From Parcubacteria group bacterium (GTDB taxonomy: Bacteria > Patescibacteriota > Patescibacteriia > UBA9934 > GWF2-40-263), in assembly GCA_013204395.1 (NCBI GenBank), contig JABMNZ010000010.1, positions 1-34,227 of the forward strand: DNA of 34,227 nucleotides, in the 5' to 3' direction. The position numbers were made by a program, and so were the translations under genes. The notes beneath the pieces were generated by a model, which had not been told where the DNA came from, ran no database searches, and saw only the letters and a program-made list of their open reading frames with translations. Positions 10,584-20,999 of the stretch are shown piece by piece (the stretch's first letter is position 1; each line of letters opens with the position of its first letter).

Positions 10584-11624
10584 TTATTTAGTCTTATTAT
10601 TTTCTACAATCAATTGCCCGCAAGCCGCTGCGATATCATCTCCCATGGTGTGACGGATGGTCGTGACCACACCTTTCTCCTTTAGAATTTTTTGGAAGAG
10701 ATCTGTCGCAGATCCGGTTGAGCATTGGAACTCTACCCCCGTAAGGTTGTAGGGAATAAGGTTGACTCGCACGTTCCCGATTCTTTTTACAAAGTTTGCC
10801 AAGGTCCTGGCATGCTTCTCAGAATCATTCACATCCTTGAGCATCACATATTCAAAAGTGAGATGATGTCGACGGTTACCAAACTTCTTGAGATAGGCCT
10901 TTGCCCAGGCTTCTATCTTTGGAAGAAACTCGTCATAGGAAGTAGGGACGATCTCTTTACGCGTTGCCGGTATGGCACTGTGTAGTGAGACAGCCAAACG
11001 GATATGTGGCCAGTCATCATCTGTAAGAATTTGCTCTAGTCGAGGGAGGACGCCGACCGTTGAAACAGTAATGCGTGTGCGTCCAATGTCTGTGTGTTTC
11101 AAAATAGCATTAAGAGATTCTTTTACGGCACCGTAGTTTGCCAGTGGCTCACCCATACCCATGAAGACGATGTTACTAATTCGTCCTTCTAATTCTGGAC
11201 GCTCATCCAAGTATCTTTGCCAGAAGCGATATTGATCAATGATCTCGTCGGCAGTAAGGCTTCGGCTTAGGCCCATCTTTCCAGTTGCACAGAAACCGCA
11301 GCGCATGGCACAACCGATTTGTGATGATACACAGATGGTCCATGCTTCACGTTTGTTTTTCATCAGGACAGATTCGATCTCCTTATCGCCCTCAACTTTT
11401 AAGATGACTTTGTGTGTGTCGCCATTACCGCTTTTCAAAATATTTTCTGGTTCAACCGTTGAGAAGGGGATACTGGAGATTTTCTCTCTAATTTCTTTTG
11501 AAAGAGAGGTGAGATCCTCCCAAGATTCAGCGGTCGAAAAAAGACCCTGTTCAATTTGTTTCCAACGGAAAGCTGGCTGGTCAGGAAAGAGTGTTTCAAA
11601 TTGTTCGCGTCGTGACTTAATCAT
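10584..11624 (-). CDS. rlmN: 23S rRNA/tRNA (adenine-C2)-methyltransferase, radical SAM
   Basis: CAMRCGFCATG CxxxCxxC motif, ...GMGEPLAN..., full-length similarity to RlmN; ATG at 11624 (listed ORF starts at TTG 11633). Confidence 0.9.
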   Translation of the reverse strand: MIKSRREQFETLFPDQPAFRWKQIEQGLFSTAESWEDLTSLSKEIREKISSIPFSTVEPENILKSGNGDTHKVILKVEGDKEIESVLMKNKREAWTICVSSQIGCAMRCGFCATGKMGLSRSLTADEIIDQYRFWQRYLDERPELEGRISNIVFMGMGEPLANYGAVKESLNAILKHTDIGRTRITVSTVGVLPRLEQILTDDDWPHIRLAVSLHSAIPATRKEIVPTSYDEFLPKIEAWAKAYLKKFGNRRHHLTFEYVMLKDVNDSEKHARTLANFVKRIGNVRVNLIPYNLTGVEFQCSTGSATDLFQKILKEKGVVTTIRHTMGDDIAAACGQLIVENNKTK

Positions 11625-11667
11625 ACAAACCAATAGGCGAGAGCAAATGCTCTCGCCCAGGTAAATG

Positions 11668-12171
11668 TTATTTTGCAGCTTCTTCCCCGGCGGAGCCGGG
11701 TCCGGCTTCGCCGGAAGCCTCTGCTTCTTCTGCAGGTGCTTCTACCTCTTCTGCAGGTGCTTCCTCTACAACAGGCTTTTCGAGTTCAGCTTTTGCCGCC
11801 TCAGCAGCAGCAGCCTTCTCTTCCTCTGCCTTAGCCTTCTTTTCTTCTTCCTTCTCCTTTGCTTCTACCACCTTCTGTTCCAACTTACCTTTTCGTTTTT
11901 TGGTTAAGTGGGTGGCTGTACGCTTTTCTCCCTCAATAACCTTTTGGTCAACAAGGAGGTTCCACACACTGTCAGATGGCTGCGCACCTTGCTTGATCCA
12001 GTACTTTACGCGATCAGCATTGATGACAACTTCTTTTGGTGTTGAACGTGGGTTGTAGTGGCCAAGAATTTCGTTTGAGTTGGCCCATGGGTCACGATGC
12101 TTAGGCATAACCACAATGCGGAATACCGGTCGCTTCTTTGATCCCACACGTGAGAATCGAATTGAGAGCAT
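11668..12171 (-). CDS. rpsP: 30S ribosomal protein S16 with long A/E/K-rich C-terminal extension
   Basis: MLSIRFSRVGSKKRPVFRIVV...NRVKYWIKQGAQPS; C-terminal ~80 aa low-complexity AEK-rich. Confidence 0.9.
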   Translation of the reverse strand: MLSIRFSRVGSKKRPVFRIVVMPKHRDPWANSNEILGHYNPRSTPKEVVINADRVKYWIKQGAQPSDSVWNLLVDQKVIEGEKRTATHLTKKRKGKLEQKVVEAKEKEEEKKAKAEEEKAAAAEAAKAELEKPVVEEAPAEEVEAPAEEAEASGEAGPGSAGEEAAK

Positions 12172-12239: not shown

Positions 12240-12348
12240 CCAAGTCAATGAGTAGTGTCCAACAATTGCGTTATTTATTATGTTTAGATCAGCTGACACG
12301 TACAAGAAAAGTGACTAAAATTAGTGCAGAATCCGTCAGTTAGTCTTG

Positions 12349-12528
12349 ACAAAAGTGGCAAAAAGTGGTAGTATGACCACGCAATATGAGAGTAGGTAAG
12401 AGGACCTAACTCGATCAATACAATCAAATATTCTCTGGGGAGAGAGTACAAATAAAGCCTAGATTTTAGATCTAGAGCCGATTGTTGTGTATTTCTTTCC
12501 AGAAGTAACCACCAATCGGCTTTTTTGT
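12349..12528 (+). ncRNA. candidate small RNA unit: promoter TTGACA-17-TAGTAT then ~140-nt hairpin-rich transcript ending in intrinsic terminator
   Basis: TTGACA at 12349; terminator gccgattg...caatcggc + tttttt at ~12480-12528; no ORF; internal hairpins tctctggggagaga, ctagat..atctag. Confidence 0.35.
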
Positions 12529-12598: not shown

Positions 12599-12832
12599 AT
12601 GTCCCGTTTTGCCATCATCCTGTCTCTCATCGTCGCAACGATCACCGCCACCACCGTCAACTCGTCCCTCGACCAGCTCCACGAGCAGTTCCAGGCCACG
12701 GAGCTGACCTTTCACCCCGTCAGCGTGACCATTCAGGTCGAGTCATCGGACGAGACCACGGTCACCTACGACGACGCTGACAACGGCGTCACCGAGATCG
12801 ACTTCCACCAGCCCTTGTTCATCGAGGGCTGA
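12599..12832 (+). CDS. small secreted/anchored acidic protein (77 aa), first gene of high-GC island 2
   Basis: GGAGG RBS; N-terminal hydrophobic MSRFAIILSLIVATITATTV; GC3 ~85%. Confidence 0.55.
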   Translation: MSRFAIILSLIVATITATTVNSSLDQLHEQFQATELTFHPVSVTIQVESSDETTVTYDDADNGVTEIDFHQPLFIEG

Positions 12833-12875
12833 TCAAACCGGACCGCAAGGTCCACACGGAGCCCCCGGCTAACGC

Positions 12876-12932
12876 AAGCCGAGCCTGCCCGCCATCGCCC
12901 TGATGTCAGCTTTGCTGACTGATGGGCGACGG
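12876..12932 (+). repeat. long imperfect inverted repeat (structured element after 12599 gene)
   Basis: gcccgccatcgccctgatgtcagc-ttt-gctgactgatgggcgacggtgggc. Confidence 0.5.
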
Positions 12933-13355
12933 TGGGCTCTCCAACTGAGTTTCTGAGTTTACTCGGAAACTCCGCGGGGAGTCACATGACTCTGGTCATT
13001 ACAACTGAATACTTCCAAGGCTCACAACGATGTTGTGCATCTTGGAAGGCTGGTGAGTGTGATTCCTATCATCGCTCGCCAGCCCGTTCTTTCCATGAAT
13101 CCGGAAGAAGATACTTTGTCCTTCGTGGTGGCCCCAGAGGGGAGCCTGCCAAGGGGGAGAGAGACAACCGTCCAGTTCGACCGCTATGCGGAAGTCTGGC
13201 GGTGAAGATCAAATGGTTTGACTAGGCTCCGGCTTGCTCACTCCATACTCAGATCTTCTCGCATGACACTCAGCTTGCTGAGTCACTCACGCATTTCTTC
13301 TCCGGATTCTTGGAAAGAATACAAGACCGACGAAACCTTCCCACAAGACAGGAAA

Positions 13356-13625
13356 ATGATTTTGAACAAGTTAACTCGAATGATCGGTTCCAAGGCAGGT
13401 TTCTGCCTCACGGGGATGACGTTTCTTACATTCATGATGGCGACCCATCCGTTCGATACGTGCTACACCCTGAGCTTCGATCACATCGAGCACGTCGGGA
13501 AGTACCTGATCCAGAACTACGTCACCAGCCGCCTGATCCTTCTCATTGGCCTGGGGGTTACGTTCGTGCTCGGTGCACGCATTTACTTCTCTGTTGAGAA
13601 GCTTAGTGACTGGTGGAAAAACTGA
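13356..13625 (+). CDS. small membrane protein, 2 TM (89 aa)
   Basis: start MILNKL within ORF 13218..13625; TM segments FCLTGMTFLTFMMA and LILLIGLGVTFVLGARIYF; high GC3. Confidence 0.55.
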   Translation: MILNKLTRMIGSKAGFCLTGMTFLTFMMATHPFDTCYTLSFDHIEHVGKYLIQNYVTSRLILLIGLGVTFVLGARIYFSVEKLSDWWKN

Positions 13626-13668
13626 GCGTAGAGAAGAAGAGTCTACTGCTAATTGCTGAACCTGCTGA

Positions 13669-13863
13669 ATGCTGGAGCTGAACATGCTGCTGAACATGCT
13701 GAAGACCCTGGGTCACGTCCTCGTGATCCTTCTCATTCTCACCCCCTGCGCGGTCATGCCGTACTTCACCTTGGATGGAGACATTAACCTCCTGTCCATG
13801 GTGGTCTGCATGGCATCGCTTTCTCGTACTGTCTCTGGGCCTTCAGCGAGAAGCTGGGCCTGA
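13669..13863 (+). CDS. small hydrophobic peptide (64 aa); 3' end uncertain, GC3 suggests frame continues in +2 frame to 13886
   Basis: MLELNMLLNMLKTLGHVLVILLILTPCAV...; begins in tandem 12-nt repeats. Confidence 0.3.
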   Translation: MLELNMLLNMLKTLGHVLVILLILTPCAVMPYFTLDGDINLLSMVVCMASLSRTVSGPSARSWA

Positions 13864-13916
13864 AGTGGGAGCACATCAACTTCTAGCTCGCAGAGGAGAA
13901 CGTCCTCAACAGCGGG

Positions 13917-13985
13917 CTCCTCAACTGAGAGGTCGACCACGTAAAACCCTTTGGGTCACGTGACAAGTCGAAACTTCAGTTGGGG
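13917..13985 (+). repeat. attC-like imperfect palindrome (CTCAAC-TGAGA ... CTTCA-GTTGGGG)
   Basis: outer arms ctcaactgaga / cttcagttggg with nested hairpins cacgtaa..tcacgtg and accc-ttt-gggt. Confidence 0.5.
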
Positions 13986-14049
13986 AAAACGATTCGACAA
14001 AATTCGCAGGCGTCGTCCTGCAATCCCATAACATGGGAGAAAGGTTCAC

Positions 14050-14256
14050 ATGAACCAGTTCTACACCGTCGGTACTGATTTCTGGTACCTCATGTTGGCC
14101 GCGTACCTGGGATGGTTCCTCATCGTGCGCGAGGCTCGTCTCGTGCGTGAAGGTGGTCTGCGGCGGGAGGCTCTCGTCCTCTTCTGCATGCTCGCGGCCA
14201 CCACAGCCGTCACCTGTTTCATGGGTGACGTGGTCTGCTGGGTGTTCAACACCTAG
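14050..14256 (+). CDS. small membrane protein, 2 TM (68 aa)
   Basis: GGGAGAAAGG RBS; MNQFYTVGTDFWYLMLAAYLGWFLIV... Confidence 0.5.
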   Translation: MNQFYTVGTDFWYLMLAAYLGWFLIVREARLVREGGLRREALVLFCMLAATTAVTCFMGDVVCWVFNT

Positions 14257-14272
14257 GGACCACATACAAACC

Positions 14273-14410
14273 CCCACCAGGAATCCGCCTGGTGGGTACG
14301 ATCGAGCTAAACTTGCCTACCGGCAGGCATGCTCGACACGCCTCAAGCAAACGCAAAGCTTGAGGACCGAACTGAGAGGTTGATTGCAATAATCGAAACT
14401 TCAGTTGGGG
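14273..14410 (+). repeat. repeat family C copy 1: two hairpins (ccaccagg..cctggtgg; cctcaagc..gcttgagg) + attC-like palindrome ending GTTGGGG
   Basis: near-identical to 17785-17880 apart from a 42-nt insert. Confidence 0.7.
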
Positions 14411-15407
14411 ATCTAGATATTTTTCCTCTCGTAGAATCTCTTTCAACTAGAAAGCGTCTCCCTGCCGGCGCGAAACCCTATTAGGCAGGGGGGTCTAGCC
14501 ACCTAGACTTTTATCATCGATTCCAAGCTCGTGGTGGTGCGAGTGTACAGGAGGGCCAATGCCCAAGAGATAGAGGGAAGCATCTGGAGGTCTTTGACCA
14601 AGTTATCGACCAGGTGTGGATCATACAGGTAACCCGGCGTACTATGCGTGGATTTTTTAAGCGGAGAGTGGGGAACGGAAAGGAGCTAGAAACTCTGAGT
14701 ACAAGTACGAAGCAATCCCGTTTAATTATCCCTCCGGAATCTCCGGAACGTCGGTGAGCAGCAATGCTCTAAAGGGTCGCGCTAAAGCATGGGAGCCATT
14801 TGATTGATAGGGCTCTAAGGTCTGGCAAACCAATTCGATCAAAAAGGTCTTCTGACTTAGACCTCCTGACTCGTCAGGTTAAATGAAGTCTCCTCTTGCA
14901 CGTGGAGGTCAATGTGCACTGTGGTCGGCTGAGCCAACTCGTCTGGATGGGTTGCGCCCATATCCCGTTGTCCGAATACGTAAACGGTCGACTTGCTGCA
15001 CAGCATCCGTCTAGGGTCCTGTGTGAGTGAGCAACAAGTATCGGTGACCCTTGCTAAACGTCATCATTGAAAAAGGAGAGGTCGCGTGACCTTCCCCCTG
15101 CTGTTCTACGAGTCTTGATGTCGCGTCTCCCAGTGGCTCGCGCCAAAAAGCACTGGAGGGTGAGTCGCTGCATCCAAACGTCAGCGTCTGAGGCCCCGGA
15201 AAGCTCGTCATGAGCGACCGGGGTCTCGAACGATCCCGGTCGCCATGCACGTTGCCGACCGGGTCCTCAACAGAGAAATTGATCCAGGTGATGGATGTCT
15301 CTGTTGAGGGCACGAGGCCCTACCTTGAGACTCTGCACATTTGGTTATGTGTGGATCGAAAGCGGTGTCATATTTCAGAATTCGAGAATATTTGAACCGG
15401 AGGAACG

Positions 15408-15746
15408 ATGTCTGAATTGACCGGAGCCTATTACGTCGCGTTGCTCGTCGACCGACGAGTGGTGAACGCGAAGGTAGCCATCATCGATGGTGATCGCACC
15501 AAGGTCGAAATCGGCGGGATGACGCTGTGCCTGGACTTCATCAGTGAGGGTCATGTTGGGGTCATCCGTGAGCCGTACGACATCAGCGACTACTTCGGAA
15601 CCGTTGTGGCCAACCAGGAGCCCACACGCTTCTCTCGTGGAGTCGTGGTCGGGTTCTACCCCGGCGAATCCGGACAGGAACTCGCTCAGTGGTGGTCCGA
15701 GAGCATCGGGTCCATGAACCTGATTCTGGATGCCGACGGCTTCTAG
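15408..15746 (+). CDS. hypothetical protein (112 aa)
   Basis: GGAGGAACG RBS; high GC3; no recognisable motif. Confidence 0.6.
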   Translation: MSELTGAYYVALLVDRRVVNAKVAIIDGDRTKVEIGGMTLCLDFISEGHVGVIREPYDISDYFGTVVANQEPTRFSRGVVVGFYPGESGQELAQWWSESIGSMNLILDADGF

Positions 15747-15915
15747 AGATCACAAAACGTGTCACCCGGGTCCGGAGCTGCCCCACTCCTTCTGGAGAAA
15801 ATCAGCGATCCCTACTGGTGCAGGTGAACCTTTAAGTCAAGATCTCTGTGACGTGGATACGCCACCGCACAGAGAGCCACATTTCGTGGCACGGTCTCGA
15901 GTTCTGACACGACTC

Positions 15916-15961
15916 GAGATTCCAACGTAGATCTCAAGTTTCCTTGAGACCTGCGTTGGGG
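15916..15961 (+). repeat. repeat family A copy 1 (attC-like: CCAAC-GTAGA-TCTCAAG-tttc-CTTGAGA-CCTGC-GTTGGGG)
   Basis: 45-nt imperfect palindrome; second copy at 16383-16427. Confidence 0.7.
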
Positions 15962-15966
15962 AAAAC

Positions 15967-15990
15967 AAAACAACCCCTTATGGGGTTGTG
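15967..15990 (-). terminator. terminator of the low-GC coiled-coil gene
   Basis: minus: caaccccataaggggttg + ttttgtttt. Confidence 0.6.
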
Positions 15991-16001
15991 GAGTCGGTCT
16001 G

Positions 16002-16337
16002 CTAAAAGTCGAGTTGAATATTGGCATGTTTTGCCAGCAGGAGCACATGCGATTCAAGCCTTTCGTATTTGGCTCGCAAGGCGGCCAGTTCTGTGTCGAG
16101 TTTTTGATGAAGGATTATAATCCCATCTACATGAGTGATAATATCGGATTTTACCTCCGTCAGCTTCTCATCAACGGTATGCTTGAAATCATGTAAGTCA
16201 GAGCGAACCTGAGTAACTTCATCACGAACCTGAGTAACTTCATCACGAACCTCACCTAGCTCATGGCTGGTTGCAGCAGTTTCCTTGATGAACTGAACGG
16301 TCTCAAGGATATCTTTAATCATTTCTTCTTGTCCCAT
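16002..16337 (-). CDS. coiled-coil protein (111 aa) with in-frame 21-nt tandem repeat (VRDEVTQ x2); low-GC module inside island 2
   Basis: GC ~42%; own promoter TTGAGC-17-TATGAT (16346-16374, minus) ending 8 nt before ATG (leaderless-like); own terminator. Confidence 0.6.
   Translation of the reverse strand: MGQEEMIKDILETVQFIKETAATSHELGEVRDEVTQVRDEVTQVRSDLHDFKHTVDEKLTEVKSDIITHVDGIIILHQKLDTELAALRAKYERLESHVLLLAKHANIQLDF
16204..16256. repeat. 21-nt tandem direct repeat x2.5 inside coding sequence
   Basis: cgaacctgagtaacttcatca repeated at 16204-16224 and 16225-16245, partial third copy. Confidence 0.8.
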
Positions 16338-16382
16338 ACTCAGAAATCATAGCACGGAGTCGTTCTCTGCTCAATTATCATT

Positions 16383-16427
16383 GAGATTCCAACGTTGAGC
16401 TCAAGTTTCCTTGAGACCTGCGTTGGG
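16383..16427 (+). repeat. repeat family A copy 2
   Basis: gagattccaacgttgagctcaagtttccttgagacctgcgttggga; 2 substitutions vs copy 1. Confidence 0.7.
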
Positions 16428-16499
16428 AAACCACACAGGAAACCCAAACCAAACTGAAACCGTGAGCTTAGGCTCACACCACCAGCCCTTAGGAGAAAC

Positions 16500-16661
16500 A
16501 TGCTGCTTTTCATTCGATGGATCCTTGGCTTGGAAGAGCCCGAGACCTACAACTGGGATGAATTGATGGCCGCGGCGAGAGCAAAGGGTCCGGTGAATCC
16601 GGTCACCCATTGCTACTGCGAGCCACACCCCGATTGGGGTGACTCCTGTCAGTGTGACTGA
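16500..16661 (+). CDS. Cys-rich small peptide P1 (53 aa)
   Basis: AGGAGA RBS; MLLFIRWILGLEEPETYNWDELMAAARAKGPVNPVTHCYCEPHPDWGDSCQCD; paralog of P2. Confidence 0.5.
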   Translation: MLLFIRWILGLEEPETYNWDELMAAARAKGPVNPVTHCYCEPHPDWGDSCQCD

Positions 16662-16677
16662 GCCACGCGCTCGCCAT

Positions 16678-16783
16678 GAGGACGCTCCTCATCGCGCGCC
16701 TGCCGCGTAACAGGTACCCTGAGGGTCTCGTTTTACGCGGCTCCTCAACGTAGAAGTTGATTCATTCGACACTTACGTTGAGG
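16678..16783 (+). repeat. repeat family B copy 1 (80-nt structured element + attC-like palindrome cctcaacgtagaag..cttacgttgagg)
   Basis: gaggacgctcctc, ccgcgtaa..ttacgcgg with inner accctgagggt; copy 2 at 16999-17107. Confidence 0.7.
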
Positions 16784-16807
16784 ATCCATAATTTATCAGG
16801 AGATTCC

Positions 16808-16972
16808 GTGACTAAGTTCATTGTTTGGCTATTGGCCTTAATCGATGGTCCAGCGCCGATGCCAGAAATGCTGCGTGATCGCCCGAAGGGCAGGAACCGC
16901 ATCTACCCAGAGACGGGGTGCACCTGCGCCCCTGAAATTGAGTGGCAGGATTCCTGTCACCATCATCACTGA
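16808..16972 (+). CDS. Cys-rich small peptide P2 (54 aa, GTG start)
   Basis: AGGAGATTCC-GTG; (M)TKFIVWLLALIDGPAPMPEMLRDRPKGRNRIYPETGCTCAPEIEWQDSCHHHH; shares FIxWxLxL N-term and C.C.P...W.DSC core with P1. Confidence 0.5.
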   Translation: MTKFIVWLLALIDGPAPMPEMLRDRPKGRNRIYPETGCTCAPEIEWQDSCHHHH

Positions 16973-16998
16973 GTCAGCCCAGCTCGTAAGCCCGCACC

Positions 16999-17107
16999 GA
17001 GGACGCTCCTCATCGCGGGCACGCCGCGTGACGAGTACCCTGAGGGTCTCGTTTTACGCGGCTCCTCAACTGAGAGGTTGATTGCTACAATCGAAATCTC
17101 AGTTGAG
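16999..17107 (+). repeat. repeat family B copy 2 + attC-like palindrome ctcaactgaga...tctcagttgag ending GTTGAGT
   Basis: perfect 11-bp arms around ggttgattgctacaatcgaaa. Confidence 0.7.
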
Positions 17108-17135
17108 TGACGCTTTGTCACTAAGGAAGGTGAGT

Positions 17136-17264
17136 GTGGAAAAGAGTTCGAAAGAGCAGGTGGACTGGTTTCAGGTGCTCGTGTGGATGGGGATTGTCCT
17201 GTTTGGTGTGAGTTTCTGGACGATTGTCTACTACGGGATCTGCAAGGTTGCAGACCTGCTTTGA
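17136..17264 (+). CDS. single-TM mini-protein (42 aa, GTG start)
   Basis: AAGGAAGG RBS; ...VDWFQVLVWMGIVLFGVSFWTIVYYGICK... Confidence 0.35.
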   Translation: MEKSSKEQVDWFQVLVWMGIVLFGVSFWTIVYYGICKVADLL

Positions 17265-17284
17265 TGAACAGAAGGAACGAGGTG

Positions 17285-17770
17285 ATGATGGACATTTATC
17301 GCGTACTAGGAAAACTCTCGTGGGGCATGAAGATGCTCTTCTCGGGAATCGTTCGTGTGATCGAGAAGCCGTCCGTCTGGCTTGTCGAAAACATCAAGGA
17401 GATGACCGGCTGCCGGACCTACCACGTGGAGAATTCCGCTGTGGCTCTGGTCCTGGTGATCGTTCTTCTGAGCACGGGAAACTGGAGTCACCCCTTCAAG
17501 TGGGTCGAGGCGCTTGCCGTGCTGATGACCTTCGGGCACGCCGGGATCGCCCAGCGACTCGAGGAGCAGCAGCGACAACAGTTGGACCTCCATGGGGAGG
17601 CGCAGGTACCGTGCTTCTACAAACTGGAGCCGATGTTCGTCGGCAAGGAGACCCTCTGGATGATCACGTTCGCCGTGGCAGGACTCTGGTCCGCACTCGC
17701 TGGCGTCTTTGTCTTCCTGATGTACTATCCCTGGCGGGAAGCCTGGCGACACCAGCATCCGCTCAGGTAG
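17285..17770 (+). CDS. hypothetical membrane protein (161 aa)
   Basis: start MMDIYRVL with AAGGAACGAGG RBS; TM segments AVALVLVIVLLSTG, MITFAVAGLWSALAGVFVFLMYY. Confidence 0.55.
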   Translation: MMDIYRVLGKLSWGMKMLFSGIVRVIEKPSVWLVENIKEMTGCRTYHVENSAVALVLVIVLLSTGNWSHPFKWVEALAVLMTFGHAGIAQRLEEQQRQQLDLHGEAQVPCFYKLEPMFVGKETLWMITFAVAGLWSALAGVFVFLMYYPWREAWRHQHPLR

Positions 17771-17784
17771 ATGCATCGTAAACT

Positions 17785-17880
17785 CCACCAGGAATAGGCC
17801 TGGTGGAAACGCCTCAAGCTAACGCAAAGCTTGAGGACCGAACTGAGAGGCCAAGAGAAATCTTGGAACCTCGGTTGGGA
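17785..17880 (+). repeat. repeat family C copy 2
   Basis: ccaccaggaataggcctggtgg...cctcaagctaacgcaaagcttgagg accgaactgagagg...cggttggga. Confidence 0.7.
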
Positions 17881-17904
17881 ACTAGATATTGGTGAGAATC
17901 AAAA

Positions 17905-17962: not shown

Positions 17963-18084
17963 TGGTGGCAGATGCGATGGCAGGCTGAAGCCAGGCTCTA
18001 CATTCCAAGTACGGTGGCAGGCTGAAGCCAGCCTCTACATGCGTTCGATGATACATGTGATGTAGCGGCGGGCTTCAGCCCGCC
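17963..18084. repeat. REP-like hairpin block, left end of Y1-transposase unit
   Basis: two ggcaggctgaagccagcctct hairpins + ttcgatgatacatgtgatgtagcggcgggcttcagcccgcc; same block repeated in direct orientation at 18603-18721. Confidence 0.75.
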
Positions 18085-18101
18085 ATGTCTCTGCGCTAAT
18101 T

Positions 18102-18566
18102 CTATAACTCATCAACGTCACAAACGAATGATCCCAGATATGGATAGTTCCTCCAATCATCAACGAGACCACCCCTTTGAGGGTTTAAGAGAATGTAGGC
18201 TGCGACATCCTTTATGGATTCTTCGTTTCTTAATATGTGGTCGTAATAGCCTTTTTGCCAGAGGGGTGTCCCTGTTGTTTTTTTGAAATGGAAGCCGGTT
18301 AATTGCTTGAATGTTGCAATTGTTTTAATCAAATTTTGATCCTCATTGGTGGGGGCCATCAAGAGGTGCAGATGATCTGGCATGAAACAATAGGCATAGA
18401 TCTCCCAACTTTGCTTACAGGCACTCTTTAGATGATTGAGACAAAACTCTACGTGAGATGGTGATAGAAAATGTCGTTGACGGTTGAATGTGCAGATGGT
18501 TACTGAGTAGGCTCGCTGTTGGTTGTAGACGTCATGGGGGAGCCGGTTTTGTTTTCTTGTGAACAT
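18102..18566 (-). CDS. HuH Y1 transposase, REP-associated tyrosine transposase (RAYT)/IS200-like
   Basis: MPDHLHLLM (HuH) and LWQKGYYDHILRNEES...YILLNPQRGGLV (RAYT WQ..Y.DH signature); listed ORF extends to 18725 by reading through the repeat block. Confidence 0.75.
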   Translation of the reverse strand: MFTRKQNRLPHDVYNQQRAYSVTICTFNRQRHFLSPSHVEFCLNHLKSACKQSWEIYAYCFMPDHLHLLMAPTNEDQNLIKTIATFKQLTGFHFKKTTGTPLWQKGYYDHILRNEESIKDVAAYILLNPQRGGLVDDWRNYPYLGSFVCDVDEL

Positions 18567-18602
18567 AGGTGGTGGGTGTGACAGCGGGACGTTACGCATA
18601 TG

Positions 18603-18721
18603 ATGGCAGGCTGAAGCCAGCCTCTGCATTCCAAGTATGGTGGCAGATGCGATGGCAGGCTGAAGCCAGCCTCTACAGCGTTCGATGATACATGTGATGT
18701 AGCGGCGGGCTTCAGCCCGCC
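18603..18721. repeat. REP-like hairpin block, right end
   Basis: see left block. Confidence 0.75.
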
Positions 18722-18734
18722 ACATGTGTGTACA

Positions 18735-20999
18735 TCATCGTCTCGCTGTACCACCTTGAGCCACTTCTTCTAGATGAACTGAAAGCAGGTTTGAGATTCC
18801 CTCGTCACCCATAGTCACACCGTAGAGTACGTCAGCTTGTTCCATGGTGGCGCGGTTGTGTGTGATGATCACGAACTGTGAGTTTTTGGAAAGCTCTGAG
18901 AGAATGCCGGCGAACCGGACGGTGTTTGATTCGTCCAAGGCGGCGTCCACCTCGTCGAGAACGACGAAAGGGGAAGGGTTCACGGCCATGATGGCACTGA
19001 TCAGAGCGATCGATGTTAGTGCTCGCTCTCCACCTGATAGTAAGTTCAGGGCTTTGAGTTTCTTGCCCGGAGGAGTTGCTTGTATGTCTACGCCGATCAC
19101 TGGGTCTGTGTGTTTTTTAACTTTGGTTTCTATGGCATCTTCTTTGTCCCTTTGCCCCTCTCCCGTATCGGCAAAAGCTCGGTCAGCAGAGACTCCTTCA
19201 CTCTCATCTTCTTCAGGAATATCTTCTTTGGTGAGTTTAACCAGACGACAACTTCCACCACCAAAGAGCATCTTGAAGTACTTTTCAAACTCGGTGTTTA
19301 TTTTACCAAAGACTTTTTTGGATTGTTTTTCAATTTGCTCATCCAGTTCAACTATGACTTTCTCTGTAGACCTGAGAGCTTTGTGAAGATCCTTTACCTG
19401 GTCATCTAGGAATTGGAAACGCTCGTTGGTTTGCTCGTACTCCTGAACAATCTCAGGATCGATGCCACCAATGAGTTCTAGTTTATACCTAAGGCGTTGA
19501 ATCTCAGGATAGGTATCAGTGCCAGGTGAGTTTTCTGGTCTGTTAGATCTAACCTCGATAGCTCGATCTTTCATGAACTCGTCCATCTCTCGGATCAGGG
19601 CTCCTTGTCGCTCTTCAAAGCGGGCTAAGTCGATCTCAAGTGTCCCACGTCGGTTTTCATACAAGTGAATCTCTCGCTGTTTCTCGCGGAGAAGCTTTTG
19701 CATCTCAATGAGCTCAGTACGCTCAGTTTTTTCTTTTGTGGCGTATGAGTCAATCTGTCCCTCTAGCTTCTCAAGTTCCTTAGCAAGCTTCTGTTCATCG
19801 ATACCAAGACTTTTTAGTTTGGCAACGAGCGTTGGATCTGACTTGATGTCTTCTGGGTTTGGACGCTGAAGCTTTTTATTGAGATCCGTCGAATGTTTTA
19901 ATAGAGCCTCAACTTCTGAGTGGAGCTCGGTGACATCCTTAATCTTCTTTAGGCCCGTTAGACCTTTTACAATAGCGCCAACTTGCTCGACGATTCTAAT
20001 AAGAGGTAGTGGAGCCCAGTTGCTCTGCGCCCTCACACGTGTGAGTTCTATTTCTTTTTCTGTTTGGAAATGTTCGTCTCGGAGAGATCGTCGTTTCTTT
20101 TGCAATTCTCGATAGGTCGTCTGTAGCGCAACCAGTCCTGTGTCTGGTGTCACATCAACTCTTTCAACTGCATCAACTTTCTTTTCCAAACTATCTAATT
20201 CTCTGCGCTCGGCAATGATCGTCTTGTCTGCCTCGTCAAAATCTTTCTTTACAGTCTGCAGGCTGTCGACCAAGTTCCACCATTGATCTCCATAATACTG
20301 TCCTTCAAGTATGTGGAGGCTCTCTTCAATGGCACCACGTTTTTCAAGACGGCTCGCTTGGCGCTTGAGGGATCTTAGGCGTGGCTCGATTTCTCTGAGC
20401 AACATTTCTACGTCAGCAAGATTTTCATGTGTACGCTTGAGTTTCAATATGGAGTTATGGCGTTTGATCTGGAACGGCTTTACCCCCGTGGCGTCATCAA
20501 AGAAAGCTTTGCGCTCCTCTGGCGTGGAAACCAAAATATGATCAATCATGCCCTGACCCACTACCGAATAAGATCTCTGGCCAACGTTCGCTTGAGCCAA
20601 TAATAACTGAATGTCGTTAAGACGAACCTTTGAATCATTTAATAGATACTCAGAGCTGCCATCACGAAAGAGACGACGGGTGATCGTTACTTCGCTGTAA
20701 TCGATGGGCATGGCCCTATCCTCATTGTTAAAAGAGATGCTGACTTCTGCAAATCCAGCTCTACTCTTCCCTTCAGATCCAGAAAAAATAACATCCTCCG
20801 ACTTTTTACCACGGAGGAGCTTTAAGCTCTGCTCGCCAAGCACCCATCGGATAGCATCAGCAAGATTTGATTTTCCAGAGCCATTTGGGCCCACAACAGC
20901 TGTAATTGGGGATCGATCTGCCTGTGGTGGCAAGAAACTAAGACTCGTTTTTTTCGCAAAGGTCTTGAATCCCTGTATTTCAAGCTTGGTCAGGTACAT
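18735..20999 (-). CDS. smc: SMC-family chromosome segregation ATPase, short (754 aa, hinge-less/abbreviated coiled coil)
   Basis: N-terminal Walker A GPNGSGKSN, C-terminal LSGGERALTSIA signature + Walker B VLDEVDAALD; long coiled coil. Confidence 0.8.
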   Translation of the reverse strand: MYLTKLEIQGFKTFAKKTSLSFLPPQADRSPITAVVGPNGSGKSNLADAIRWVLGEQSLKLLRGKKSEDVIFSGSEGKSRAGFAEVSISFNNEDRAMPIDYSEVTITRRLFRDGSSEYLLNDSKVRLNDIQLLLAQANVGQRSYSVVGQGMIDHILVSTPEERKAFFDDATGVKPFQIKRHNSILKLKRTHENLADVEMLLREIEPRLRSLKRQASRLEKRGAIEESLHILEGQYYGDQWWNLVDSLQTVKKDFDEADKTIIAERRELDSLEKKVDAVERVDVTPDTGLVALQTTYRELQKKRRSLRDEHFQTEKEIELTRVRAQSNWAPLPLIRIVEQVGAIVKGLTGLKKIKDVTELHSEVEALLKHSTDLNKKLQRPNPEDIKSDPTLVAKLKSLGIDEQKLAKELEKLEGQIDSYATKEKTERTELIEMQKLLREKQREIHLYENRRGTLEIDLARFEERQGALIREMDEFMKDRAIEVRSNRPENSPGTDTYPEIQRLRYKLELIGGIDPEIVQEYEQTNERFQFLDDQVKDLHKALRSTEKVIVELDEQIEKQSKKVFGKINTEFEKYFKMLFGGGSCRLVKLTKEDIPEEDESEGVSADRAFADTGEGQRDKEDAIETKVKKHTDPVIGVDIQATPPGKKLKALNLLSGGERALTSIALISAIMAVNPSPFVVLDEVDAALDESNTVRFAGILSELSKNSQFVIITHNRATMEQADVLYGVTMGDEGISNLLSVHLEEVAQGGTARR

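Follow-up and report, generated by a model that had tools for sequence, protein, structure and literature searches.

The rpsP–SMC interval and its attC-like sites

The window analysed here is an entire metagenomic contig of 34,227 bp from Candidatus Uhrbacteria, a lineage of the Candidate Phyla Radiation (CPR, Patescibacteria). Its 16S rRNA fragment is about 75% identical to that of Escherichia coli, and the radical-SAM gene at 10584-11633 encodes RlmN, whose closest named relatives are found in Candidatus Uhrbacteria. Our subject is the segment 15916-16427 (the focal module), in which a single minus-strand gene is bracketed by two direct repeats. The segment lies inside the 6.6-kb interval that runs from rpsP to an SMC-family gene, and it was compared with the corresponding region of related loci and assemblies (L001, L005, L016, L023 and others). 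The features needed for this comparison are:

11668-12171, minus strand: rpsP, the gene flanking the array on one side
12599-17886, plus strand: cassette array containing the focal module (sites, orphan open reading frames (ORFs) and unit-level insertions and deletions relative to L016 and L042)
13010-13048 and 13087-13319: further hairpin sites of the array
13913-13991, 14360-14416, 15259-15315, 15914-15967, 16381-16434, 16737-16789, 17058-17114 and 17831-17886, plus strand: attC-like sites on the same strand (covariance model, alignment)
15914-15967, plus strand: left attC-like site of the focal module, family A (inner hairpin TCTCAAG/CTTGAGA; covariance model 57.6 bits on the plus strand, 19.3 on the minus strand)
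15932-17886, no strand: strain-specific block with the focal cassette and the cassettes that carry ORFs 16500-16661, 16845-17081 and 17183-17770
16002-16337, minus strand: focal gene, 111-aa coiled-coil protein (ORF list, homologs, predicted structure)
16381-16434, plus strand: right attC-like site, family A (covariance model 54.7 bits on the plus strand)
18735-20999, minus strand: SMC-family gene, flanking the array on the other side

An earlier note on this DNA had described the focal module as a low-GC segment of opposite orientation, set between 45-bp direct repeats in a high-GC island. Both repeats are there and are somewhat longer than that, 48 nt each (15916-15963 and 16383-16430, 94% identical to each other) and 54 nt by the covariance model. 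The module has 43.5% GC compared with 54.6% in the rest of the array, and its gene is the only one on the minus strand among the cassette ORFs of the window, so that composition and orientation agree with the note. The high-GC island is real as well, and by its nature it is an integron-like cassette array.

Canonical attC sites have the outer cores R'' (RYYYAAC) and R' (GTTRRRY), and extrahelical bases mark their recombinogenic bottom strand. Each focal repeat is an imperfect palindrome, CCAACG...CGTTGG, with the outer cores TTCCAAC...GTTGGGG on the left and TTCCAAC...GTTGGGA on the right. Folded as single-stranded DNA and compared with shuffled controls, the left repeat reached -13.6 kcal/mol (z = -5.6) and the right repeat -9.8 kcal/mol (z = -3.2). 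The repeats are copies of an array-wide site family and not a duplicated unique target sequence, and the focal module does not show the combination of insertion-made direct repeats and terminal inverted repeats by which a transposon or a miniature inverted-repeat transposable element is recognised. In an alignment of the eight window sites, nothing was invariant throughout except a left AAC and a right GTTG, the right cores reading GTTGRG. The arms vary, with compensatory changes at 8 of 17 pairs; lengths range from about 45 to 80 nt, and two helices are split by a 3-nt internal loop. A strict AAC/GTT filter (R box of at least 6/7) returned three sites only, with strands indistinguishable, and was superseded by the covariance model and a generic palindrome scan. 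The covariance model built from the window sites scored them at 50-64 bits on the plus strand and 14-32 bits on the minus strand, which shows that they share a single orientation.

Family A extends beyond the window. The L017 array holds at least four more copies of the repeat and at least ten sites on the same strand, 330-740 bp apart. A pattern scan of metagenomes for the family-A site gave no match, the window's own contig included, and a protein scan of metagenomes added distant groundwater contigs only. For some window sites, homology reaches 40-70 nt upstream of the palindrome and takes in extra small hairpins (16669-16762 versus 16990-17083, and 14325-14400 versus 17796-17871; 86% and 80% identity), so that some cassettes share a 3' module larger than the attC-like site.

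Within the window array, which has at least eight same-strand sites, these are spaced 321-899 bp apart, mostly with one small ORF or none per unit. These cassette ORFs had no match in NCBIfam, PADLOC or PHROGs, and the neighbouring ORF 15408-15746 had one homolog cluster among 5.8 billion proteins. Arrays of orphan ORFs with a high GC content at third codon positions (GC3) occupy the rpsP–SMC locus in at least eight genomes. The length of the interval differs widely among them:

L024: about 2.7 kb
L008: 3.1 kb
L040 and L041: 4.5 kb
Window: 6.6 kb
L017: at least 9.4 kb
L001+L019: about 16.5 kb
L005+L021: about 23 kb

Related arrays differ by whole units, which are present in one genome and absent from another with breakpoints at the sites. 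L016, whose RlmN is 92.5% identical to that of the window, has an additional 1,235-bp block, comprising two ORFs, that is missing from the window. The block starts right after a hairpin ending CTTGGAAG and ends with a hairpin of its own that also ends CTTGGAAG, whereupon homology resumes; the crossover falls within the shared 7-nt core, TTGGAAG. Compared with L042, several further units are present or absent. L040, L041 and L042 are close relatives of the window at the protein level (SMC 96%, RlmN 95-96% and ClpP 99% identical). Their whole rpsP–SMC interval is covered, and neither tblastn nor a hidden Markov model of the family detected the focal gene in it. Instead, these genomes have one site, with a 15408-type cassette (96.7% identical) on one side and, on the other, a 58-aa ORF, a diverged allele of the window ORF 16500. 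Their left flank is identical through GAGATTCCAACGTAGA, high identity ends at 15931, inside the left site, and the leader to the right of the right site (16441-16460) matches the leader to the right of their single site. The search for an empty site that the earlier note had proposed was thus positive, and a single site without the gene, between matching flanks, supports its suggestion of a cassette exchanged by site-specific recombination at the palindrome.

The difference extends beyond the focal module. In place of window positions 15932-17886 with four cassettes, L040-L042 have about 670 bp with two cassettes. Identity is 96.7% in the left flank of this strain-specific block and 93% in the right flank; the interior is either missing or no more than 73% identical, and high identity resumes at 17887. 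The data fit a gain in the window lineage and a loss in the relatives equally.

The focal gene, its product and its expression signals

The focal ORF is a real gene, since homologs were found both by a word-indexed search (17) and by an exhaustive search (546 cluster representatives of 65-217 aa at E<=1e-3). They occur in metagenome-assembled genomes of Uhrbacteria, Magasanikbacteria, Parcubacteria and other Patescibacteria. AlphaFold2 predicts a single continuous helix over residues 3-104, with a mean predicted local distance difference test score (pLDDT) of 92, and together with the homolog family this bears out the minus-strand coiled-coil gene that had been proposed. Both termini are conserved, DILEtVqFiK at the N-terminus and HVDGxxxLHQKLDTELAALRAKYxRLE at the C-terminus, and the middle is variable in length. 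Residues H69, L76, Q78, E83 and L84 are invariant in the family and D71, H77, D81, R88 and K90 nearly so. In Pfam, NCBIfam, PADLOC and PHROGs, the matches of the protein were all to coiled coils and below threshold, a profile search of the PDB returned coiled-coil noise only (for instance MafG and JIP3), and the longer family members had no informative extra domains.

Three further features belong to the gene:

16204-16252, minus strand: 21-nt tandem duplication, 2.3 copies, 100% identical, in-frame (VRDEVTQ twice), adding one heptad
16346-16374, minus strand: focal promoter, -35 TTGAGC, 17 nt, extended -10 TGcTATGAT (sequence match)
15960-15989, minus strand: intrinsic terminator, hairpin ACAACCCC-ATAA-GGGGTTGT at 15989-15970, then TTTGTTTT

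The exact in-frame duplication of VRDEVTQ had been reported in the earlier note. The nearest homologs of the window protein, P0002 and P0003, are seven residues shorter. In 6 of 12 orthologs, Tandem Repeats Finder detected in-frame duplications, 21 or 33 nt long, that are independent of one another:

Window: 21 nt x 2.3
L024: 21 nt x 2.1
L025: 21 nt x 2.0
L006: 21 nt x 2.6
L001: 33 nt x 4.5
L007: 33 nt x 2.2

Periodicities of seven and eleven residues keep the register of a coiled coil. Since the duplications add 7 or 11 residues and recur independently, the length of the rod is evolutionarily labile. Repeat-mediated variation in length, as once suggested for this gene, therefore holds on the evolutionary scale; polymorphism within a population was not seen.

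The near-leaderless promoter TTGAGC-17-TATGAT and the terminator of the earlier note are both found. The -10 element lies 8 nt before the ATG (16337), and the terminator hairpin is followed by a T-tract that runs into the core of the left site; the same abutment occurs in L001, L005, L024 and L025. The geometry TTGA / TGnTAnnnT / 8 nt / ATG is conserved in six orthologs, inside and outside arrays, and homologs share the N-terminus M-x-Q-E, counted from the first ATG. The conservation of both marks the leaderless layout as an ancestral trait of the gene. Judged from these sequence features, the focal mRNA is probably leaderless, and promoter and terminator are probably active. None of the neighbouring plus-strand ORFs has a promoter-like match just upstream.

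The composition of the focal gene resembles that of the host's resident genes. Its GC3 is 0.42, compared with 0.62-0.89 in eight plus-strand cassette ORFs of the window, and across five genomes it ranges from 0.36 to 0.49 and tracks housekeeping genes, cassette ORFs being at 0.56-0.93. GC3 is bimodal in the window and in L001, L005, L019, L021, L024 and L040, with housekeeping genes at 0.34-0.59 and cassette ORFs plus some syntenic accessory genes (MVP-like, PNP, NUDIX) at 0.56-0.93. This pattern persists in genomes that are only 72% identical in SMC, which argues that the high GC is not simply a sign of recent import. The L004 locus shows the same mosaic of low and high GC, so that it may itself be from a CPR genome rather than a case of transfer between phyla.

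In distant CPR genomes the focal homolog is an ordinary gene with inconsistent neighbours; two of these genomes have it near rplA and a deaminase, and another near PfkB and an aldolase. In the window, L001 and L005 the gene is embedded in the array and bracketed by the site family of its own genome, and in L025 a site is present on both sides. Because its GC3 is housekeeping-like, its family CPR-wide and its flanks occupied by sites in the window, L001 and L005, the focal gene is a lineage-type gene that exists in cassette form. This reconciles the two alternatives of the earlier note, a cassette gained by recombination and a host-derived insertion, and the idea of a host-like origin holds, with a family that is widespread in CPR outside arrays.

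HicB/HicA-type toxin–antitoxin genes follow immediately after the focal homolog in L008 (10302-10780) and L004 (6365-6861). In L008, the focal homolog and HicB/HicA are each closed by near-identical AAAACACACCTGAAT.CAGGTGTGTTTT terminators.

A probable gene cassette and its alternatives

Most probably, the segment 15916-16427 is one gene cassette of an integron-like array without an integrase, located in the rpsP–SMC gap of Candidatus Uhrbacteria. Clustered attC sites without integron integrases (CALIN) and cassettes bearing their own promoter are established categories (10.1101/030866; PMC13108822). At least two clustered sites and no integrase within the roughly 4-10 kb that count for a CALIN were observed here, with sites that are attC-like by their own model only, and by structure the array is a CALIN-like element (definition in 10.1101/030866). 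The two direct repeats would then be consecutive attC-like sites oriented as in the rest of the array, and recombination at such sites would add, remove or swap whole units, so that relatives with one site and no gene are expected where the window has site, gene and site. A tyrosine recombinase of the integron-integrase type would presumably act in trans on folded single strands. As the cassette brings its own promoter and terminator, it should be expressed at whatever position of the array it is placed. Its product would be a long α-helical coiled-coil rod with conserved end motifs, drifting in length by duplications of heptads or hendecads.

Several observations weigh against this interpretation. 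Pfam scans of the larger ORFs found neither an integron integrase nor another tyrosine recombinase in the 34-kb window, the only recombinase-type domain among the scanned ORFs being that of a REP-associated tyrosine transposase (RAYT; REP, repetitive extragenic palindromic). A tblastn search with IntI1 of plasmid R100 (E<=1) gave no match in the window or in at least 20 loci, and Pfam lists of the called genes contained no integrase domain over the full intervals of L001+L019, L005+L021, L040 and L041, both ends included. No attI was identified, and no intI or recognisable pseudogene of it stands at either array end. The sites are atypical, too. Fold analysis of the window sites did not reveal the bulged extrahelical bases of canonical attC; their arms are equal, internal loops and mismatches are symmetric, and both strands fold about equally well. 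The outer cores of many sites in L001 and L005 are not AAC/GTT (for example CCACCGA...TCGGTGG and CTCCRTC...GAYGGAG), and the model of the window sites does not find the aadA1 attC in plasmid R100 (E<=10). Furthermore, the focal gene occupies the array edge in L008, L024 and L025, next after SMC, as an ordinary resident gene would.

The junction with L040-L042 is equally imperfect. What distinguishes the window from these relatives is a block of four cassettes versus a block of two, and not a proven single insertion. The single site of the relatives (L041 5068-5117) shares both outer arms with the window and has the inner hairpin AATTGATCTAATGATCGATGG, not TCTCAAGTTTCCTTGAGAC. Under a canonical exchange at the right-hand core, the left site should have kept the 15408-cassette's inner hairpin, which it has not, and the left-site breakpoint maps to the left arm, a non-canonical position. 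The swap of the inner hairpin could be due to gene conversion between adjacent family-A sites or to independent turnover of the site. An orientation of the sites on the minus strand fits the left-site junction; it was rejected as a general rule, being contradicted by the junctions with L016 and L042.

Alternatively, the focal gene might be a resident gene, ancestrally located just downstream of SMC and not mobile, around which the array grew and which relatives lost by deletion or block replacement. We regard this as unlikely, even though a number of features suit it. In L008, L024 and L025 the gene is co-oriented with SMC and immediately follows it, with no full site on the SMC side in L008 and L024, and it is present in six of six mid-distance relatives in which that end of the interval is visible. 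Housekeeping-like GC3, operon-like ordinary contexts in distant CPR genomes, the ancestral promoter geometry and a divergence that scales with that of the flanking genes point in the same direction. However, the window, L001, L005 and L025 have array sites of their own genome on both sides of the gene, its position in the array differs among genomes, and the relatives with 96% SMC identity have a single site and no gene at the corresponding place, on which account this explanation was downgraded. It also overlaps with that of a cassette, as a resident gene turned into a cassette would show both sets of features. That the segment is instead an addiction or stabilising cassette, protecting the array from loss by analogy with the toxin–antitoxin cassettes of large chromosomal integrons, is hardly probable. 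Its own promoter amid ORFs for which no promoter was matched just upstream, the precedent of self-promoted toxin–antitoxin cassettes (PMC13108822) and the HicB/HicA genes next to the homolog in L008 and L004 would be in line with such a role. Against it stand the single gene, in which Pfam, NCBIfam and PADLOC found no toxin or antitoxin domain, the prediction of a plain coiled coil, the location of most family members outside arrays, and the close relatives that lost or never had the gene and still keep their arrays.

The palindromes could also be generic repeats of the REP or terminator type, with differences between genomes arising by homologous recombination, slippage and gene conversion and with no dedicated site-specific system. 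The failure to find a recombinase, the near-symmetric hairpins that have no extrahelical bases, an inner-hairpin mismatch resembling gene conversion, the extended homologous modules beside some sites and the RAYT with REP hairpins adjoining the array would all be compatible with this. We nevertheless consider it very improbable, because the focal repeats show no similarity to the REPs flanking RAYT (GGCAGGCTGAAGCC...ATGTAGCGG), which form a different sequence family from the array sites, most sites have no terminator T-run, and AAC/GTT is invariant while the arms vary. Generic repeats also sit poorly with units that share one orientation and in most cases hold a single ORF or none, and with an L016 insertion that begins and ends exactly at the shared 7-nt core; such an architecture is familiar from integron cassette arrays, not from arrays of REPs. 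Finally, composition shift and repeats might stem from a chimeric assembly, given that the window is a contig from a metagenome and that repeats may lead to mis-joins. An artefact of this kind, which the earlier note had considered for the composition shift, has a negligible probability. The independent Logan assembly of run SRR28106091 (L023) reproduces window positions 14690-16743 at 100%, both repeats and the 21-nt duplication included, so the focal structure is not an assembly artefact; the arrangement of the gene between two sites also recurs in L001, L005 and L025.

As a gene cassette, the segment can be compared with known systems. Like the sedentary chromosomal integrons and CALINs described by Cury et al. 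(2016, 10.1101/030866) and Neron et al. (2022, PMC9024848), the window has co-oriented small ORFs, mostly orphans, each followed by an imperfect AAC...GTT palindrome, genome-specific site families, units of 0.3-1 kb, no integrase nearby (as in CALINs) and whole-unit presence or absence between strains with breakpoints at sites. It differs from them in its CPR host, in its single conserved locus (rpsP–SMC) in at least eight genomes, in short sites (typically 45-55 nt) without extrahelical bases, in the cores of sister genomes, which depart from AAC/GTT, and in one junction unfit for right-hand-core exchange. With cassettes of chromosomal integrons that bear a promoter, mainly the toxin–antitoxin cassettes in the superintegron of Vibrio cholerae (Richard et al., 2024, PMC13108822), the focal cassette would have in common its own promoter and position-independent expression in a largely silent array. 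Unlike these, it consists of a single coiled-coil gene without a toxin or antitoxin domain and with a predicted leaderless mRNA; elsewhere in CPR, members of its family are mainly normal genes of the chromosome. In the literature, we found no report joining integrons and Uhrbacteria, and the integron surveys examined do not mention CPR or Patescibacteria.

The architecture itself is thus known from integrons and CALINs; the host group and the lineage-type cargo are new, as are the atypical sites and a fixed locus that has no recombinase. Integrons are familiar chiefly from Proteobacteria whose genomes are of medium size. Here, a CPR bacterium devotes as much as about 23 kb of a single conserved locus to an array of orphan genes that turn over fast and differ in composition. 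If the cassette interpretation is correct, cassette-array biology would extend to CPR. The loci would also provide a comparative series for the passage from gene to cassette, with the gene at the array edge, bracketed by sites, or absent. This touches on two open questions, the origin of cassettes and sites and the way in which integrase-less clusters stay dynamic. A bolder version, which in our opinion has a slim chance of being right, is that Uhrbacteria run an integron-like cassette system without an integron integrase and turn the lineage's own genes into cassettes, promoter and terminator included. The idea draws on the fixed locus in genomes of about 1 Mb, the recombinase-free array ends, the missing extrahelical bases, the non-AAC/GTT cores and breakpoints on either arm. 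If true, this conversion of genes into cassettes would be a natural snapshot of cassette genesis.

The ORF-less cassette and other features of the contig

Close to the focal module, the cassette 14417-15258 has no ORF and contains a core of about 450 nt (14550-14998, plus strand) that is conserved in the window, L008, L024 and L025, with invariant patches broken by variable-length hairpins. Of the 99 pairs in the consensus fold, 32 show compensatory changes. The core folds better on the array strand (-95 versus -69 kcal/mol), which invariant G-U pairs also favour, and its tblastx matches have stop codons in every frame. Rfam returned no family in the array (E<=1) or in the orthologous loci (E<=5), and this null result excluded group II introns, RNase P, transfer-messenger RNA and known large RNAs. 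As modelled, the core is a candidate for a new large structured RNA. ORF-less integron cassettes with promoter or RNA function have been described (10.1101/2023.11.21.568050; PMC6557892), and the unit 14417-15258 resembles them in being ORF-less yet conserved across genomes; compared with the described promoter-type cassettes, its core is far larger (about 450 nt) and has multi-helix covariation. Should the array work without an integrase, this unit could be part of the machinery. Besides the array, the analysis flags a widespread uncharacterised CPR coiled-coil protein and a candidate large non-coding RNA.

At the rpsP end, one further signal was found:

12346-12374, plus strand: candidate promoter of strong consensus type at the rpsP end of the array, TTGACA, 17 nt, TAGTAT, directed into the array

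About 100 nt past it, between rpsP and the first cassette, lies a 21-bp hairpin with a T-run (12476-12527). The region 12346-12527 is 88% identical in L016 and also conserved in L017 and L008; it could represent a Pc-like array promoter or a small RNA. Further into the array, the 233-nt block 13087-13319 is closed by a 19-bp long-range stem, TTCTTTCCATGAATCCGGA / TCCGGATTCTTGGAAAGAA, with compensatory stem changes in L008. It is 71-93% conserved in L008, L016 and L017, and unit insertions and deletions begin directly after its right arm. It may represent an attC-like site of giant size, or else another structured element.

Between the array and SMC, the RAYT gene (18102-18725; NF047646, 103 bits) is flanked by doublets of GC-rich REP hairpins containing GTAGCGG (17977-18086 and 18602-18723). 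RAYT is present in L042 and absent from L040 and L041, and similar REP doublets occur inside the L001 array.

Outside the interval, the 5' part of the 16S rRNA gene (1-868, minus strand) is cut by the contig end; trmD, only about 0.9 kb away, is an unusual neighbour. A 580-aa protein (3459-5201, minus strand) has the major vault protein domains MVP_shoulder, Vault repeats and Band_7. Its gene is syntenic in L019, L021 and L040, and a vault-like protein is unusual for a CPR bacterium. A riboswitch for S-adenosylmethionine (8160-8264, minus strand; 57 bits, gathering threshold 44.4) lies upstream of a PNP_UDP_1 phosphorylase-family gene (7364-8083). Ribosomal protein S16, the product of rpsP, carries an Ala/Glu/Lys-rich C-terminal extension of about 80-100 residues with 21-nt repeats (repeat at 11812-11853), which is common to the relatives (167-182 aa).

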